In this document: positions 1,427 to 5,680 of the stretch, piece by piece
Position numbering within the stretch: position 1 is the first letter of the stretch
Layout: each line of letters starts with the position of its first letter
From: a virus
Lineage: Duplodnaviria > Heunggongvirae > Uroviricota > Caudoviricetes
Virus record (IMG/VR): IMGVR_UViG_2703719354_000026
DNA length: 5,680 nt
Strand: one strand, 5' to 3'
Position numbers and translations under genes: made by a program
The notes under the pieces: model-generated
What the model was told of the DNA's origin: nothing
The model's input: only the letters and a program-made list of their open reading frames with translations
Databases searched by the model: none

Positions 1427-1660
1427 TTATTCTCCGGTGTGCTGTTCTTTATATCTGTCGTGCAATAGATCTATTTCTTGCAGTTCCATTATTACAGGCT
1501 CAAGAATCGTTATTAATGCCGTGGCAATTCTTGATTTTTGTTTGTCGCGTTCATTGTCGCCACGTGTTTCAAGCCATATGCGAAATATTTCCAACATATT
1601 TTCACTGTGAGAAAGTGCAAGAAATGCGCGGTCTATTGTTTCAAGATAAATATCACGCAT
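1427..1660 (-). CDS. Hypothetical small acidic protein (77 aa)
   Basis: ATG at 1660 with GGGGA 5 nt upstream. Starts 1 nt after the stop of the upstream ORF and ends 5 nt before the next start. Net acidic. Confidence 0.6.
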   Translation of the reverse strand: MRDIYLETIDRAFLALSHSENMLEIFRIWLETRGDNERDKQKSRIATALITILEPVIMELQEIDLLHDRYKEQHTGE

Positions 1661-1661
1661 A

Positions 1662-1883
1662 TTAATCCCCGTCCGTTGTTTTTCTTAAAACAGCTTCTGT
1701 CACGAAATCAGCATAGTTAGCGGCAATATCAAGAATATTTAGCCCTGTACCTCTGTGCTCATCAGTGCAAAGAAAGAAAAAAGCCACCCGCATAATTTCA
1801 GATATTGACGAAAGCGCATCAGCCGCATCATCAGGAACGCCGGAAAATTCTTGTTTCAGGGAATTAAAACGATCATCACGCAT
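1662..1883 (-). CDS. Hypothetical small acidic protein (73 aa)
   Basis: ATG at 1883 preceded by a strong purine-rich RBS (GGGGAGGGGGGG). Net charge about -7. Tightly packed with neighbours. Confidence 0.6.
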   Translation of the reverse strand: MRDDRFNSLKQEFSGVPDDAADALSSISEIMRVAFFFLCTDEHRGTGLNILDIAANYADFVTEAVLRKTTDGD

Positions 1884-2101
1884 AACCCCCCCTCCCCATT
1901 TTCACAATCAGCAACAAGAATATTTTTAGCGTCATTCAGCGACCGCGTGGCGGTGTATCGGATACATTCCAGGGCGAACAATGTGTATTCCTCCCGTTCT
2001 TCCTTTTGTGCAAGCTCTGCCGTGCATTCAATATCAATAAGCGCGTGCATCAGCGTAGTGAGTGCGGCGGCGGCTGCGTCCGGTGTGGTTTTATTGCACA
2101 T
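1856..2101 (-). CDS. Hypothetical small acidic protein (81 aa from internal ATG; ORF track extends to 2158)
   Basis: In-frame ATG at 2101..2099 has GGAGGGG 6 nt upstream, whereas the track start at 2158 has no clear RBS. Overlaps the next ORF by 28 nt. N-terminal 'PDAAAAALTT' resembles 'PDDAADALSS' in ORF 1662..1883. Confidence 0.5.
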   Translation of the reverse strand: MCNKTTPDAAAAALTTLMHALIDIECTAELAQKEEREEYTLFALECIRYTATRSLNDAKNILVADCENGEGGLCVMIVLIP

Positions 2102-2324
2102 GGTGTACCCCTCCGCATTTTTTTTCGTTAGAAATAAGCGCTCTTCTTTCCTGTTCATCGCTCAGGAATACGCAGACCTCACCGCTAAGGCGTTTAAGTA
2201 AGCCGATGATTGCCCCTGATTCGCTGTCGGTCATCATGCCAGGGTAATCCTCTGCCAGTGCGCAAATAACTTCGATTTGGTGGGCGCGTTCTGCTGCCTG
2301 TTGTAGTGTGATTTCCTGACTCAT
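2091..2324 (-). CDS. Hypothetical small acidic protein (77 aa)
   Basis: ATG at 2324..2322 overlaps the stop of the upstream ORF (ATGA). AGGGGG lies about 8 nt upstream, inside the conserved 19-bp junction repeat. Confidence 0.55.
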   Translation of the reverse strand: MSQEITLQQAAERAHQIEVICALAEDYPGMMTDSESGAIIGLLKRLSGEVCVFLSDEQERRALISNEKKCGGVHHVQ

Positions 2325-2782
2325 AAGCCTACCCCCTGACGAATACGGGCGACAAAAATCAGATGTGCGTGCGGCAGCTGGGCGCGGGCTTCGCGTTCAG
2401 TGGCTGCGGTAACGGTGTAAATATCAATGCTGCTGTGGTGGCACTGCATAAAGCGCCAGACAAAGTAAGGGCGTGCGGATACAGCCATGTGAAAGGCTCC
2501 CAGATGAATTTTAAGGAGTCTCGCTACTACGCTGCTAAACATGGTGGCGAGACGTAACAGGGTTAGCAGACTGGTCATCTGGAAACCAGCGAGCACAAAG
2601 GCTCCCCCGTTACGCCCCGCCATAATGCGGGTATGGGTAGGTTTACGGACACAAAAAAACCGCTTATCGGATGTGGGCGGCTGTCCGCCAGATGTATTCA
2701 GGCTGCTAAACCCGGTCGCCATGTGGGCGACGGGGGAAGCATACAGCCCCGTGATAATTTTTTGCAAGCGGTTTTTACGCAT
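2321..2782 (-). CDS. Hypothetical protein (153 aa); the C-terminal 55 aa (from internal ATG at 2488) is a paralog of ORF 2775..2972 and may be translated separately
   Basis: ATG at 2782 with AGGGG about 8 nt upstream, overlapping the upstream ORF's stop by 8 nt. Internal ATG at 2488 has GGGAG 8 nt upstream. C-terminal domain carries 'FVWRF', 'TEREAR' and 'ARIRQG' motifs. The N-terminal part has a hydrophobic stretch ('AFVLAGFQMTSLLTLLRLATMFSSVVA'). The ORF-track version starts further upstream at 2824 (GTG). Confidence 0.45.
   Translation of the reverse strand: MRKNRLQKIITGLYASPVAHMATGFSSLNTSGGQPPTSDKRFFCVRKPTHTRIMAGRNGGAFVLAGFQMTSLLTLLRLATMFSSVVARLLKIHLGAFHMAVSARPYFVWRFMQCHHSSIDIYTVTAATEREARAQLPHAHLIFVARIRQGVGL
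2333..2351. repeat. Copy 1 of an exact 19-bp direct repeat (plus strand cccctgacgaatacgggcg) at a gene junction
   Basis: Identical 19-mer at 2333..2351 and 2790..2808. On the minus strand it encodes the C-terminal 'ARIRQG' of one protein and supplies the RBS of the next gene. Confidence 0.9.
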
Positions 2783-2972
2783 GATGTGACCCCTGACGAA
2801 TACGGGCGGCGAATACAGCAACACAACCGGACGGGCAACGGCTACGCGCTTCGCGTTCCCTCCAGGCGGTTACGTGGATGATTTGAGATTCTCCGGCACT
2901 CAGTGCCAGAAAACGCCACACAAAGGCCGTTTGTGTGTGTACAAGGTGTGGTATATGATTTACGGCAACCAT
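2775..2972 (-). CDS. Hypothetical small protein (65 aa), first gene of the coupled operon; paralog of the C-terminal domain of ORF 2321..2782
   Basis: ATG at 2972..2970 with AGGAG 5 nt upstream. The ORF-track start at 3074 would force coding through a GC hairpin and has no RBS. Motifs 'FVWRF', 'REREAR', 'ARIRQG' are shared with the paralog, and the differences in those motifs are synonymous. Confidence 0.55.
   Translation of the reverse strand: MVAVNHIPHLVHTQTAFVWRFLALSAGESQIIHVTAWREREARSRCPSGCVAVFAARIRQGSHHA
2790..2808. repeat. Copy 2 of the exact 19-bp direct repeat at a gene junction
   Basis: Same 19-mer as 2333..2351; flanking sequence is diverged. Confidence 0.9.
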
Positions 2973-3002: not shown

Positions 3003-3045
3003 AGCCCCGTTACTGCTCCTACAGTGCGGGGCTTTGCTTTTTGTG
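3003..3045 (+). terminator. Terminator-like hairpin with T tract in the divergent intergenic region (plus-strand orientation)
   Basis: Stem agccccg (3003..3009) pairs with cggggct (3027..3033), with inner actg/cagt pairs, followed by TTGCTTTTT. The reverse strand lacks a U tract. Confidence 0.35.
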
Positions 3046-3053
3046 TTGATTGT

Positions 3054-3098
3054 GTGTAATGTGTCATTACACATAAATACATTACATGAGGTGTAATT
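3054..3098. promoter_or_regulatory. Operator array: four TGTAAT-type half-sites in alternating orientation, overlapping candidate divergent promoters
   Basis: GTGTAATG (3054..3061) and CATTACAC (3065..3072) form a perfect 8+3+8 inverted repeat. CATTACAT (3080..3087) and GTGTAATT (3091..3098) form a second pair. Spacings are 11/15/11 bp. The array sits just upstream of the RHH gene start (GTG 3102) and overlaps its GAGG RBS. Confidence 0.55.
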
Positions 3099-3101
3099 AA
3101 C

Positions 3102-3281
3102 GTGTCAACACACAAAAACGAAAGGCGTGGTAATCCTCCGTTCCAGTTCCGTTTAGATCCTGACTTACGGGAAAAGATGGAAAAGGCACAACAACAGGAC
3201 GGCGATGATTCTCTTGCTGCCTGGATAAAGCGAATAATCCGCAAAGAATTACAGCAACGCGGCATAGAACCCAAAGGATAA
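3102..3281 (+). CDS. Arc/MetJ-type ribbon-helix-helix (RHH) DNA-binding protein, 59 aa, GTG start
   Basis: GTG at 3102 with GAGGTG 8-9 nt upstream; in-frame stop immediately upstream at 3087..3089. Translation 'VSTHKNERRGNPPFQFRLDPDLREKMEKAQQQDGDDSLAAWIKRIIRKELQQRGIEPKG' follows the Arc/Mnt/CopG pattern (N-terminal beta strand 'FQFRL', then two helices). Below the ORF-track length threshold, so not listed there. Confidence 0.75.
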   Translation: MSTHKNERRGNPPFQFRLDPDLREKMEKAQQQDGDDSLAAWIKRIIRKELQQRGIEPKG

Positions 3282-3338: not shown

Positions 3339-3524
3339 ATGAACAACGAAGAATTACGGGAAATCGCATTATCCATACTTGAAAGACAGGTAGAAAAAAA
3401 ATTAAGAGAAATGGATGAAATGCCTGACCATGAACAGGAAGCAAGGCCAAAAAGATTTGCCCTTGAGGATTTTCTTAAAAATTGCCCAAGAAAGATGAGA
3501 TCGTGGCGTTGTTGTCCGCCCTGA
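3339..3524 (+). CDS. Hypothetical 61-aa protein co-transcribed with the RHH gene (partner protein, function unknown)
   Basis: ATG at 3339 with AGGAG (3328..3332) 6 nt upstream. It starts 57 nt after the RHH stop and is followed by an intrinsic terminator. Acidic helical N-terminus and a Cys/Pro-rich basic tail ('CPRKMRSWRCCPP'). Confidence 0.6.
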   Translation: MNNEELREIALSILERQVEKKLREMDEMPDHEQEARPKRFALEDFLKNCPRKMRSWRCCPP

Positions 3525-3600: not shown

Positions 3601-3627
3601 TGCGACCATCATAGGTCGCATTTTTTT
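3601..3627 (+). terminator. Rho-independent terminator of the RHH operon
   Basis: Perfect 7-bp stem tgcgacc (3601..3607) / ggtcgca (3614..3620), 6-nt loop, then seven T (3621..3627). On the minus strand the hairpin is followed by A-rich sequence, so it is plus-specific. Confidence 0.75.
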
Positions 3628-3897: not shown

Positions 3898-4086
3898 TTA
3901 ATGAACTGCCTTGCAGCTATCCTTCCAGGCCAGAACCTCGGATAAAGACCAGCCAACGGAACGACCGCCAAGTTTACGACGTGATGGGAATTGTCCGGCC
4001 TTTTCCAGGCGGTAGCGACACGTACGGCTAAGGCCGGTTAGTTTTTTGCATTCTTTTTCACGTATAAACCGATCAGTGCTTAACAC
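3898..4086 (-). CDS. alpA: AlpA-family (prophage CP4-57 regulatory protein-type) small HTH transcriptional regulator / excisionase-like protein, 62 aa, GTG start
   Basis: Translation 'LSTDRFIREKECKKLTGLSRTCRYRLEKAGQFPSRRKLGGRSVGWSLSEVLAWK' matches the AlpA pattern (RFLRL..TGLSRST.YRL...G.FP....LG.RSVGW...E...W). GGGGG lies 6 nt upstream of the GTG. There is no in-frame ATG upstream (stop at 4114..4116). It sits directly downstream of the integrase, as is typical. Confidence 0.9.
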   Translation of the reverse strand: MLSTDRFIREKECKKLTGLSRTCRYRLEKAGQFPSRRKLGGRSVGWSLSEVLAWKDSCKAVH

Positions 4087-4450: not shown

Positions 4451-5680
4451 TTATTTTCTTCTGGCTACTGGTAGTGCGGTTACGTTTTCATGTGTTCCCG
4501 CCAGTATCCCTAACCGCTCCATCCACATATCCAGCGCATTGCGTTTAGCATCCAGATAACGGGAATGATTATAAACTCGCTGCATTCCTGGCATCTGGTG
4601 GCCTGTAAGCTGCTCCACGACGTGAGGATCCACGCCTAAATCGTTCAGCATCGTTGTAAAGGTGCGCCGGATGTCATGTAGTGACCAGTGAGGGTGATTT
4701 AGCCTCCTGTGCGCTAATCTGCCGTACTGCGACACGCTTGTTTCCTGTTTCACTTCCCCCAGCAATAAGCCCGTGTGCCTGTTCTGCTCCACCAGCTGCG
4801 TGACGAACGGCAGTATTGCTTCCGGTATGGGCCGGAATATGGCTACCTTCGTTTTGCTGTGCTCCTTCGGAACAGTCCAGAGCATTTCGGTAAAATCCCA
4901 CTCGCCGATCTCCGATAACCTAAGTTCGACCGTCCGGCATCCGAACACAATCAGGAGGCGGATTAGCGCGATGTAGTAGGGGGAGAATATTTTTTTGTCC
5001 AGTGCCTGCAATAATTCGCCAAGTTCTTTGTTGCTTAAGACACGCTCGCTTATATCCGGTTTTTTCCCAACGTCCGCCACACTCATATCATCAAGAACGT
5101 TGCTGATTGCATAGCGCCGCTTCCGGCAGAACTTAAGCGCCTGCTTGCATGTCTGTAGCAGGAACCCGGCGGAAACAGGGGCTTGCTTTGCCACCCGATC
5201 AAAACAGGCCAGCCAGTGCCGTAGCTCGCATTTATCCAGCGGCATAGGGCCAATGTGCTGTATTACGTGATTATTTAGCCGCTTTTTCAGTGGGTCATAA
5301 TCCACACGGTTTTCCTTTGCGTACGACTCAAGCCAGTAGGTGAGCGCATCACCAACCGTTACGGGCTTTAACGCTTCCTGTACGGTGTAATTCATCTCAT
5401 GACGTGGATTTTTCCCCTCTGCCAGCCATGCGCGACACTGGGCGGCTTTTTCCCTGGCTGATTTCAGGCTCAGATCAGGATAATTTCCCAGCTTAATGCG
5501 GTCCGGTGGTGCCCCCCTTCCCGTTCCGGCCCTGTAAGTGAAATACCAGGTTAAAAGGCCACTGGTTGAATGCCTGACGCTCAGGTTTCCACCGTCATTA
5601 AGAAAGGCTGTTTTTTGGGCGGGTGTGCCGTTGATTTTCCTCAGCTGTGTATCGCTCAGTTTGTTAAGTGCTCTGCTCAT
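4451..5680 (-). CDS. int: Tyrosine site-specific integrase, P4-type (N-terminal arm-binding domain plus C-terminal catalytic domain), 409 aa
   Basis: ORF-track ORF. The N-terminus 'LSDTQLRKINGTPAQKTAFLNDGGNLSVRHSTSGLLTWYFTYR' matches the P4-like integrase arm-binding domain. The C-terminus carries 'HDIRRTF', 'LTGHQ' and 'RVYNHSRY' (catalytic His/Arg/Tyr of tyrosine recombinases). The start codon coincides with the last 3 nt of the window, so the true start could lie further upstream. Confidence 0.95.
   Translation of the reverse strand: MSRALNKLSDTQLRKINGTPAQKTAFLNDGGNLSVRHSTSGLLTWYFTYRAGTGRGAPPDRIKLGNYPDLSLKSAREKAAQCRAWLAEGKNPRHEMNYTVQEALKPVTVGDALTYWLESYAKENRVDYDPLKKRLNNHVIQHIGPMPLDKCELRHWLACFDRVAKQAPVSAGFLLQTCKQALKFCRKRRYAISNVLDDMSVADVGKKPDISERVLSNKELGELLQALDKKIFSPYYIALIRLLIVFGCRTVELRLSEIGEWDFTEMLWTVPKEHSKTKVAIFRPIPEAILPFVTQLVEQNRHTGLLLGEVKQETSVSQYGRLAHRRLNHPHWSLHDIRRTFTTMLNDLGVDPHVVEQLTGHQMPGMQRVYNHSRYLDAKRNALDMWMERLGILAGTHENVTALPVARRK

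Follow-up and report, generated by a model that had tools for sequence, protein, structure and literature searches.

In the early operon of a capsid-forming phage-inducible chromosomal island (cf-PICI) of Escherichia coli, a segment that looks like a tandem array of four small open reading frames (ORFs), A to D, is best read as three gene units from unrelated families: A, a bipartite B-C, and D. The segment spans positions 1427-2324 of the window, by which we mean the whole stretch of DNA that was analysed, 5,680 nucleotides of the IMG/VR virus record IMGVR_UViG_2703719354_000026. The two halves of B-C are joined or separated by the length of a run of G residues at their junction. An earlier note on this DNA had taken the four ORFs for small acidic proteins of an early operon, possibly distant paralogs, and had raised the possibility that they act as DNA mimics or as inhibitors of host or helper functions. 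The account that we favour as a whole, and hold to be probable, is that of a cf-PICI early operon with three unrelated gene units, in which a G-run joins B to C and the products are helical factors that bind other proteins.

Results

Four small ORFs under purifying selection

All four ORFs lie on the minus strand at the coordinates first given for them: A at 2091-2324 (77 amino acids, net charge -5), B at 1856-2101 (81 amino acids, -7), C at 1662-1883 (73 amino acids, -7) and D at 1427-1660 (77 amino acids, -6). The earlier description of all four as net acidic is correct (K+R-D-E as listed, isoelectric points of 4.4-5.0), and so is the statement that each has a good ribosome-binding site: duplexes with the anti-Shine-Dalgarno (anti-SD) sequence, computed against the 3' end of 16S rRNA, have energies of -10.7 (A), -10.0 (B), -12.0 (C) and -6.2 kcal/mol (D). 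An alternative upstream ATG of B, at 2158, forms a duplex of only -2.2 kcal/mol, and since it lacks a Shine-Dalgarno (SD) site, the start at 2101 chosen in the earlier note is the right one. The ORFs do overlap or abut one another, A and B by 11 nt, B and C by 28 nt, with a 1-nt gap between C and D. Flanking junctions are equally tight (a 4-nt overlap between an Icd-like gene and A, and a 5-nt gap between D and a DUF4222 gene), and cistrons overlap or abut all the way from the Icd-like gene to the replicase.

Every one of the four has relatives in the PHROG families, A in phrog_1478 (E=3.7e-28), B in phrog_5146 and in positions 1-75 of phrog_2512, C in phrog_24341 and in positions 78-146 of phrog_2512, and D in phrog_2196 (E=4e-38). 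Across the window proteins these matches range from E=1e-11 to 1e-42, and all five families are annotated 'unknown function'. Searches with A and D retrieved only near-identical unnamed proteins from E. coli or from unnamed metagenome sources; 517 homologs of D were found, the best 120 of them nearly all of 77 amino acids, at least 90% identical and without names, with Escherichia as the only source, and both homolog sets were too shallow to give better structure models. Purifying selection is evident on B, C and D, with ratios of non-synonymous to synonymous substitution rates (dN/dS) of 0.24-0.37 across dozens of related loci (0.33 for D, from 68 loci), while A varies too little for this test. 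As far as sequence can tell, A, B, C and D are real genes.

B and C as the halves of one bipartite gene

B and C match positions 1-75 and 78-146 of the 154 positions of phrog_2512, side by side and in the same order, and a single coding sequence of 154 amino acids stands in place of B and C in strain FORC_042. A profile search of 5.8 billion proteins gave 818 matches, of which the best 120 were all fused proteins of 144-155 amino acids, with junctions that read ENGGVM, ENGGGVM, ENGGGM or ENGGGGVM. Residues 1-71 of B and all 73 residues of C are 96-100% identical to the halves of several fused proteins of 144-145 amino acids, and C is 100% identical to the C-halves of fused proteins. At the nucleotide level the window differs from the fused FORC_042 junction by 5 extra bases (GAAAAT-GGGGAGGGGGGG-TTATG against GAAAAT-GGGGGGG-TTATG); the last nine residues of window B (LCVMIVLIP) come from reading the start of C in another frame, and window C would be translated from its own ATG. 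Together, the coverage of phrog_2512, the fused homologs and the FORC_042 alignment indicate that B and C are one unit. The array of the earlier note therefore stands as four ORFs but not as four independent genes, with B and C being the N- and C-halves of a single one, which is at present annotated as one or as two 'hypothetical proteins' depending on the strain.

Split forms are nonetheless widespread in the databases. The exact 73-residue C sequence occurs on 367 contigs and the exact 81-residue B on 5, and B-only variants of 73, 74 and 75 amino acids, ending GGGYA, GGGGYA or GEGGGYA, were each found on 4-30 contigs. When 1.84 billion representative sequences were searched with a fused B-C profile (HMMER), 53 proteins were recovered at E<=1e-3, with no remote family among them. 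In divergent relatives the B-like and C-like genes are cleanly separate and have no G-run; there the B-like proteins end ..ADIQEVGHA or similar, and the C-like proteins, of 75-77 amino acids, also stand alone.

A G-run of variable length at the B/C junction

The run at the junction, GGGGAGGGGGGG on the coding strand, occupies positions 1886-1897 of the minus strand (G4 at 1894-1897, A at 1893 and G7 at 1886-1892), where it sets the reading frame between B and C and serves as the SD of C. We scanned IMG/VR with a pattern that allowed a variable gap between conserved flanks, and read the run in the 91 matches obtained. It was G8 in 34 of them, G7 in 24, G9 in 18, G10 in 4 and G11 in 2, and was interrupted in 9, three of which have the same GGGGAGGGGGGG as the window. 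By this count 28 of the 91 alleles are fused and 63 split, and a second tally gave 32 fused out of 93.

Other homopolymers in the same loci behave differently. The A8 run at 2118-2125 is 8 nt long in 17 of 18 loci and the A7 run at 1099-1105 is 7 nt long in 27 of 27, and A/T runs of 6-8 nt are in general invariant or nearly so. The other G/C runs are of 5-6 nt in most copies; among them, those of G6 never change in length, and two of the G5 runs show slight variation.

The G-run varies even between islands that are otherwise almost the same. When loci were grouped by identical flanks (200+200 nt), 6 of the 10 groups contained more than one run length, and the islands of strains E2865 and 96_1414B are distinguished by a single-nucleotide polymorphism (SNP) over 6.4 kb plus G9 in one against G8 in the other, with all other proteins identical. 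At least six complete genomes share an identical 413-nt match, the length of the G9 allele, among the 60 matches listed, the run itself having been read in E2865 only. On a neighbour-joining tree built from 900 nt of flanks of 93 loci, Fitch parsimony requires at least 39 changes of run length over the 93 taxa, as compared with 45.9 +/- 2.3 when labels are shuffled, and among nearest neighbours with flank divergence of no more than 0.5%, run length is shared by 17 of 30. Run length shows almost no phylogenetic signal.

The near-constant control runs, the recurrence of the split variants and the pair of islands one SNP apart together make it unlikely that this variation is sequencing error. We read the run as a mutational hot spot at the scale of E. 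coli lineages, at which replication slippage would often change its length, and we make no claim of flipping within a clone. Three points have to be set against this reading. Assembly errors at long G-runs are possible, and the islands hold no other G/C run of 7 nt or more as a matched control; recombination in the flanks inflates the parsimony count of length changes; and six complete O157:H7 genomes from three countries all carry G7 with the same fused protein, which indicates that a clone does not switch rapidly, at any rate when its run has this length.

The A8 run (2118-2125, minus strand) lies near the 3' end of ORF A, and with one A fewer A reads into B. Such A-B fusions exist in the databases, for example P0350 (...ISNEKNAEGYMCNKTTPDAAA..., 47 member sequences), and A7 is found at this position in one of the 18 IMG/VR loci, so that two junctions of the operon can be fused by homopolymer indels. 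Programmed -1 frameshifting on A8 was considered and rejected, as a -1 shift enters the third frame and not that of B.

Predicted consequences of run length for B and C

From the alleles one can predict what each length would produce. Runs of G7 or G10 would give one fused protein of 144-155 amino acids; with G8 or G11, B would end ..YA at a stop 4 nt after the ATG of C; and with G9 or the 12-nt G4AG7 of the window, B would end in the nine-residue out-of-frame tail ..LCVMIVLIP. C would in split alleles be made from its own ATG, with the G-run as its SD site. Pairing of the run with the anti-SD amounts to about -11 to -12 kcal/mol in every allele, and the internal Met of C is kept in nearly all of the best 120 fused homologs. 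This SD and the retained Met suggest that C can start independently in all states, and both modules would be expressible at every run length.

Selection on the two modules is the same in either state, with a dN/dS of 0.24-0.34 for B and 0.27-0.37 for C in fused and split alleles alike. The spectrum of lengths is unimodal around 8, and the fused fraction of about one third is what mutation alone predicts. Since every length leaves both modules expressible and about one third of alleles are fused, the frame, and with it the covalent linkage of B to C, looks close to neutral. That fusion is tolerated so often suggests in turn that B and C act together, side by side in one complex.

Some of the data do not sit easily with such a complex. 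In a related satellite that has no B, the C-like gene is preceded by an Icd-like gene and followed by a 66-aa gene, after which come DUF4222 and a DUF927 enzyme; C-like genes of this kind, which have no B partner, leave an obligate B-C complex unproven. The dN/dS values are unable to separate fused and split states if these interconvert quickly. The AlphaFold2 (AF2) model of a fused B-C homolog, made from a 5-sequence alignment, reached a mean predicted local distance difference test score (pLDDT) of 53.7 and was judged unfit for fold search; its B half forms two long helices (residues 7-34 and 37-67, pLDDT about 72), and its C half, at a pLDDT below 50, supports no interface between B and C.

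If the fused protein of 144-155 amino acids were the true gene, B and C of the window would be a frameshifted pseudogene or the result of a homopolymer sequencing error. The best 120 homologs are all fused, the fused G7 form does not vary in O157:H7, from which lineage the prototype cf-PICI comes, and one G8 assembly has a further 1-nt homopolymer deletion that is annotated as a frameshift, all of which would fit. We nevertheless consider this explanation improbable. Most alleles are split, and the split forms turn up repeatedly, on many independent contigs and in complete genomes, with B and C under the same purifying selection as in fused alleles and with the strong SD and ATG of C retained in all alleles; divergent relatives have separate B-like and C-like genes and no G-run; other homopolymers in the same assemblies do not vary; and the fused fraction of about one third is that expected of an unconstrained frame.

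A quite different proposal, that the G-run is an adaptive contingency (phase-variation) switch, is raised by the persistence of the run itself, as a pure G-run of 7-11 nt is found in about 90% of alleles despite a nucleotide diversity of about 0.3-0.4 in mid-B. The run, and perhaps A8, may then be under selection as a switch, with satellite populations that are mixed between fused and separate B and C and hedge between forms that differ in their activity towards helpers or hosts, for instance in helper or immunity specificity. The frequency of length changes, nearly without phylogenetic signal, and the ability of A8 likewise to fuse A to B agree with this proposal. We think it doubtful, however, because the unimodal spectrum and the frames near one third each are those expected from mutation alone, G7 is stable within O157:H7, the role of the run as the SD of C also explains its presence, and synonymous conservation is seen at all gene ends and not at this junction alone. 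In a variant of the same proposal, slippage of polymerase or ribosome on the run may let every allele make both forms. We keep to the reading of a run that mutates often and whose frame matters little.

No evidence for duplication among the ORFs

The suggestion that the ORFs arose by duplication rested on an N-terminal 'PD(D)AA.AL[ST][ST]' string and an 'NIL' string shared by two of them. Both strings are present in B and C, and the PDAAxxAL motif is truly conserved in both families, but the resemblance does not exceed what chance would give. With BLASTP, B and C could not be aligned at E<=100. In Smith-Waterman comparisons set against 2000 shuffles, B and C reached z=2.0 (p=0.05, uncorrected for six pairs and not significant), and none of the other five pairs scored above the shuffles (z<1; overall range -1.4 to 2.0). 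Profile-profile comparison with hhalign, for which the B and C families were built from divergent relatives (10 B-like and 9 C-like sequences), aligned only the 9-column PDAAxxAL, with a probability of 0.4% and E=0.16. The spacing from the motif to NIL differs as well, at 53 amino acids in B and 32 in C. BLASTP, shuffles and hhalign all fail to support descent from a common ancestor by duplication, and together with the match of A, B, C and D to different PHROG families they speak against a tandem array of paralogs.

Distribution and modularity of the segment

The B-C region is present in 906 of 5,426 complete E. coli genomes, and a search of 50,697 phage records with fused B-C found nothing, for which reason B-C appears to be satellite-specific. 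A search of genome contigs with narrow peptide patterns added a single Shigella locus only. Gene order across the IMG/VR loci is constant, running from the Icd-like gene through A, another gene or none, to B, C, D or none, and DUF4222. The slot of A can hold A, an unrelated 70-aa gene or nothing detectable, and D was not detected in roughly a fifth of related loci; the comparison of gene content across related islands proposed in the earlier note thus does reveal cassette-like variability. D and B-C occur together with DUF4222 in most loci. The B-C-D-DUF4222 block precedes a RepA-family helicase in 53 of the IMG/VR loci and a DNA primase family protein in 26, and strains E2865 and F8704-2 also carry the block.

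Two divergent allelic types are found of B and likewise of C, with free recombination among them. Over the region 1662-2101 of 90 loci, synonymous diversity reaches 0.3-0.5 in mid-B and mid-C and falls to 0.03-0.2 at the ends of both, and the low diversity of the ends fits either modular exchange at gene boundaries or overlapping translational signals. One protein of the 1.84 billion set combines an N-terminal domain like the slot-A gene of FORC_042 with a C module whose Met is replaced by Leu. Chimeras were noticed among the 53 relatives of B-C (P0178, P0173 and P0182): in one, the N-terminal 50 residues of C are joined to the C-terminal 28 of D, in a second, the NIL string common to B and C is the point at which residues 1-62 of B pass into the C tail, and the third consists of a slot-A-type domain plus C. 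These suggest frequent illegitimate or short-homology recombination among the cistrons, or are possibly artefacts of assembly or gene calling. More distant relatives of A, 38-41% identical, are small ORFs of the early left operons of Salmonella phage Fels-1 and of Klebsiella temperate phages.

The window as one arm of a capsid-forming satellite

We identify the window as the integrase-to-replicase arm of an E. coli cf-PICI of the EcCIEDL933 type, by comparison with its relatives. Related DNA is found in 1,759 of the 5,426 complete E. coli genomes (megablast with the whole window), and the best match is strain FORC_042, with 96.9% identity across 86% of the window. The island of FORC_042 sits between phoQ and roxA and reads int, alpA, Icd-like, small ORFs, DUF4222, RepA helicase, SSB and PerC, followed by the genes for major capsid protein, prohead protease, portal, head closure, connector, HNH, TerS and TerL. 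This organisation matches that of the capsid-forming PICIs reported for EcCIEDL933 (10.1101/2022.09.08.507074). It is the gene order of this closest complete relative on which the assignment of the window is based, and the same order bears out the earlier placement of the array in the early operon of a satellite. The set of genes expected of a cf-PICI, from an HK97-type capsid to TerL and without those for tails, lies outside the window and was seen in FORC_042; a capsid gene is visible within the available DNA of 11 of 90 related IMG/VR loci.

Within the window, int, alpA, DUF4222 and the RepA helicase gene are all on the minus strand, as the cf-PICI layout requires. The tyrosine integrase (409 amino acids, 4451-5680) was recognised from its ORF and the annotation of relatives, and alpA (62 amino acids, 3898-4086; Pfam PF05930, E=6e-17) encodes a regulator of the PICI activator/excisionase type. 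DUF4222 (99 amino acids, isoelectric point 10.2, 1122-1421; Pfam PF13973, E=5e-25) is the next cistron after D, and always lies directly upstream of the replicase, whether this is of the RepA, primase or DUF927 type. The replicase gene of the window, which encodes a RepA-family helicase according to the annotation of the 96.9%-identical relative, is represented by its 5' part (1-1125), the left end of the window cutting it short, and starts with an ATG at 1125 that overlaps the DUF4222 stop codon.

A putative C4-type RNA switch upstream of A

The leftward early operon would start in a control region near 3050-3100 and then pass an immunity switch composed of an Icd-like gene, the a1/b1 element, a C4 RNA and the a2/b2 sites over a second Icd-like gene, beyond which it would continue through A, B, C, D, DUF4222 and the replicase. 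The C4-type antisense immunity RNA, of the kind of P1 c4 and P4 CI, was found at 2540-2627 (minus strand) as a full-length match to Rfam RF01695 (72.7 bits against a gathering threshold of 45, E=2.7e-13). Its a1/b1 target element, at 2695-2744 (minus strand), scores 45.5 bits with RF03163, just below the gathering threshold of 46.7, and its a2/b2 target sites were located by complementarity to C4 at about 2532-2538 and 2495-2507 (minus strand). CUGCUAA of C4 is complementary to UUAGCAG both upstream and downstream of C4, and the 13-nt C4 loop GGUUUCCAGAUGA is complementary to UCAUCUGGGAGCC over the SD of the proximal Icd-like gene, so that the b2 target covers the ribosome-binding site of that gene. 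The proximal Icd-like gene (55 amino acids, 2321-2488, minus strand) matches NCBIfam NF033153, phage_ICD_like, at 51 bits on the extended ORF, and has PHROG matches; its stop overlaps the start of A (ATGA). By analogy with known C4 elements, a C4-type RNA switch would thus gate the operon that carries A-D. Hits to C4 and isrK in Gram-negative PICIs have already been reported (PMC10111431).

Several further features of this region were noted. Two tandem Icd-like genes flank the C4 RNA, the distal one (65 amino acids, 2775-2972, minus strand; NF033153 at 60 bits, phrog_29966 and phrog_1743) being the first cistron of the leftward operon, and related islands have one to three Icd-like matches; P1 has a single icd, after c4. 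An isrK-like hairpin at 2653-2731 (minus strand; Rfam RF01394, 36.8 bits, below the gathering threshold of 50) ends in a terminator-like run of U7; it may terminate transcription after the first Icd-like gene and ahead of C4, and read-through could then be under the control of the immunity RNA, as it is in P4. In RefSeq and elsewhere, 2321-2782 (minus strand) is annotated as the gene of a 'host cell division inhibitor Icd-like protein' of 153-155 amino acids (MRKNRLQKIIT...). The first 100 or so codons of this long ORF run over the C4 RNA and a1/b1, and only its last 45 or so residues match the Icd-like model; it is probably an over-call, and the real gene would be at about 2321-2488.

Upstream, the region 3038-3118, between the gene of a ribbon-helix-helix (RHH) protein and the leftward operon, looks like an operator-promoter, with a palindrome and several CATTACA/TGTAATG repeats. 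The operator-like palindrome (3050-3076) has 12-nt arms (3050-3061 and 3065-3076, 92% complementary) around a 3-nt spacer, with extra half-sites. A TTGACA box at about 3093-3098 on the minus strand is a candidate promoter picked by eye and was not listed by the consensus promoter scan. Between alpA and the leftward operon lies a plus-strand cassette of low GC content (0.41-0.43), which comprises an Arc/RHH-like protein of 59 amino acids (3102-3281; phrog_228, E=2e-6), an ORF of 61 amino acids without matches (3339-3524) and, after the latter, a good terminator-like hairpin (3601-3620). The cassette could encode a repressor of the operon or a small toxin-antitoxin-like pair, and FORC_042 has different DNA there.

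Possible functions of A, B-C and D

Scans of A, B, C, D and fused B-C against Pfam, NCBIfam and PADLOC found no family, and PADLOC gave no defence-system family for the DUF4222 or Icd-like proteins either. A-D matched no antirepressor family in Pfam, PHROG or NCBIfam at E<=1. In sequence and profile searches of the PDB, neither D nor the family profiles of B and C matched anything below E=0.6, and the best match of A was a hydrophobin at E=0.02. AF2 predicts ORF A to be a helical hairpin (helices at residues 7-26 and 34-71), with a pLDDT of 81 for the best model and of 58-65 for the other four, and a Foldseek search of PDB and BFVD, made with the A model only, returned generic two-helix matches, none of them at E<=1e-3. 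The profile searches and structure predictions that the earlier note had recommended thus gave no family, structure or fold match from which a function could be read.

All four products are predicted to be small, helical and mildly acidic cytoplasmic proteins, which would act by protein-protein contacts on targets of the helper phage or the host once the C4 switch opens. A-D occupy a position in the operon that we take to be equivalent to that of Ant in P1 and of epsilon in P4, and from this equivalence, the apparent restriction of B-C to satellites, the occurrence of the block before two replicase types and the helical predictions we infer, with low confidence, that they are small helical factors that bind helper-phage or host proteins. 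Two considerations count against even this modest proposal, namely that both the translation and the function of A-D are read from sequence alone, and that no homology to antirepressors, anti-defence proteins or characterised families was found with Pfam, PHROG, PADLOC, NCBIfam, PDB or Foldseek.

The main rival to this function is that the small proteins are accessories of satellite replication or regulation, involved for example in origin remodelling, helicase loading or control of the switch. Their genes belong to the same translationally coupled operon as DUF4222 and the replicase, which follow immediately after them, and D and B-C share most of their loci with DUF4222. Yet the same B-C-D block stands before two unrelated replicases, 53 loci having the RepA helicase and 26 the primase, and this speaks against an accessory role tied to one replicase; C-like genes are also found ahead of a DUF927 enzyme, there are islands that do without A, without B or without D, and A-D match no DNA-binding or replication-related family in Pfam, PHROG or NCBIfam. 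An accessory role is for us a possibility of some weight, though an unlikely one.

The earlier proposal of four duplicated small acidic proteins, expressed early as DNA mimics or as anti-restriction- or anti-CRISPR-like inhibitors of defence, has in its favour that all four are small, net acidic and encoded in an early operon, that the slot shows cassette-like turnover, and that the middles of B and C form divergent allelic types between conserved ends, as is compatible with targets in an arms race. Paralogy fails every test, however, and the charge density of -0.065 to -0.096 per residue, with isoelectric points of 4.4-5.0, is ordinary for cytoplasmic proteins and far from that of Ocr or ArdA. 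Comparisons of sequence, profile and fold brought up no known mimic or anti-defence protein, and dN/dS is about 0.3 and not above 1. We regard the proposal as a whole as very unlikely, and DNA mimicry in particular as unlikely. As to an anti-defence or helper-manipulation role in the wider sense, the evidence is positional, and it neither supports nor excludes such a role.

Discussion

The genes described here were already known as hypothetical proteins, as were the kind of satellite and, in outline, its C4 context. What is apparently unreported is a polymorphism between fused and split forms that is driven by a G-run which doubles as a ribosome-binding site. We found no report in the literature of homopolymer or phase variation in PICIs, and the papers on cf-PICIs, as far as the accessible ones show, do not characterise the genes between the switch and the replicase, one of them calling the region after alpA variable and of unknown function.

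Satellites of this type are common in E. coli and move between species by borrowing tails. The analysis provides experimental handles on one of them, in the form of three gene units, a bipartite gene whose linkage is toggled by a G-run, and a block behind a C4-type switch. A difference in activity between the fused and split states would make the locus an unusual example of heterogeneity that a homopolymer drives in a satellite, and if the selected switch were true, there would be a contingency locus on a phage satellite widespread in E. coli; without such a difference, the existence of the fusion would still be a sign that B and C probably work together. In either case, the annotation of B/C and of the C4 region, with its over-called Icd-like protein, needs attention.

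Among known systems, DNA mimics such as T7 Ocr and ArdA, and the small acidic anti-CRISPRs, resemble A-D in being small, acidic and encoded early on a mobile element. Ocr and ArdA carry near -0.2 charge per residue. The charge density of A-D is two- to three-fold lower, and they differ further in having no sequence or fold match to these proteins and in predicted shapes that are simple helical hairpins. A closer likeness, in the case of ORF A, is to STM0898.6n of Fels-1 (64 amino acids), to which it is 41% identical over 58 residues and which lies among small ORFs between the repressor and xis/int; this likeness to lambdoid early-left ORFs applies to A only.

The immI region of P1 and P7 (c4, icd, ant1/ant2) has the same arrangement as the window, with a1/b1, the C4 RNA and a2/b2 over the ribosome-binding site of an Icd-like gene, followed by downstream genes. 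In immI the expression of the effector genes depends on the icd ORF. The window differs in that A, B-C, D, DUF4222 and the replicase have no detectable similarity to Ant1/Ant2, in having two Icd-like genes, and in belonging to a satellite rather than to a plasmid prophage; the effect of C4 is here inferred. In the left operon of P4 (CI RNA with seqA/seqC, kil, eta, epsilon, orf151 and alpha), as in the window, an RNA of the C4/CI type gates small proteins and then a replicase. Epsilon of P4 is an antirepressor of the helper, whereas A-D are unrelated to families annotated as antirepressors in Pfam or PHROGs. The cf-PICIs make their own capsids and take only tails from their helpers, and we know of no helper-derepression activity in them.

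Finally, the junction of B and C invites comparison with the contingency loci of Campylobacter, Neisseria, Haemophilus and Bordetella, with their poly-G or poly-C tracts, and with glpK of Mycobacterium, which have in common with it a coding G-run of at least 7 nt and frame-shifting changes of length among near-identical relatives. E. coli is not known for homopolymer phase-variable loci. In contingency loci a gene is switched off, whereas the run in the window toggles between a fused protein and two separate products, occupies the three frames in proportions near one third each, and serves at the same time as the SD of an internal start.

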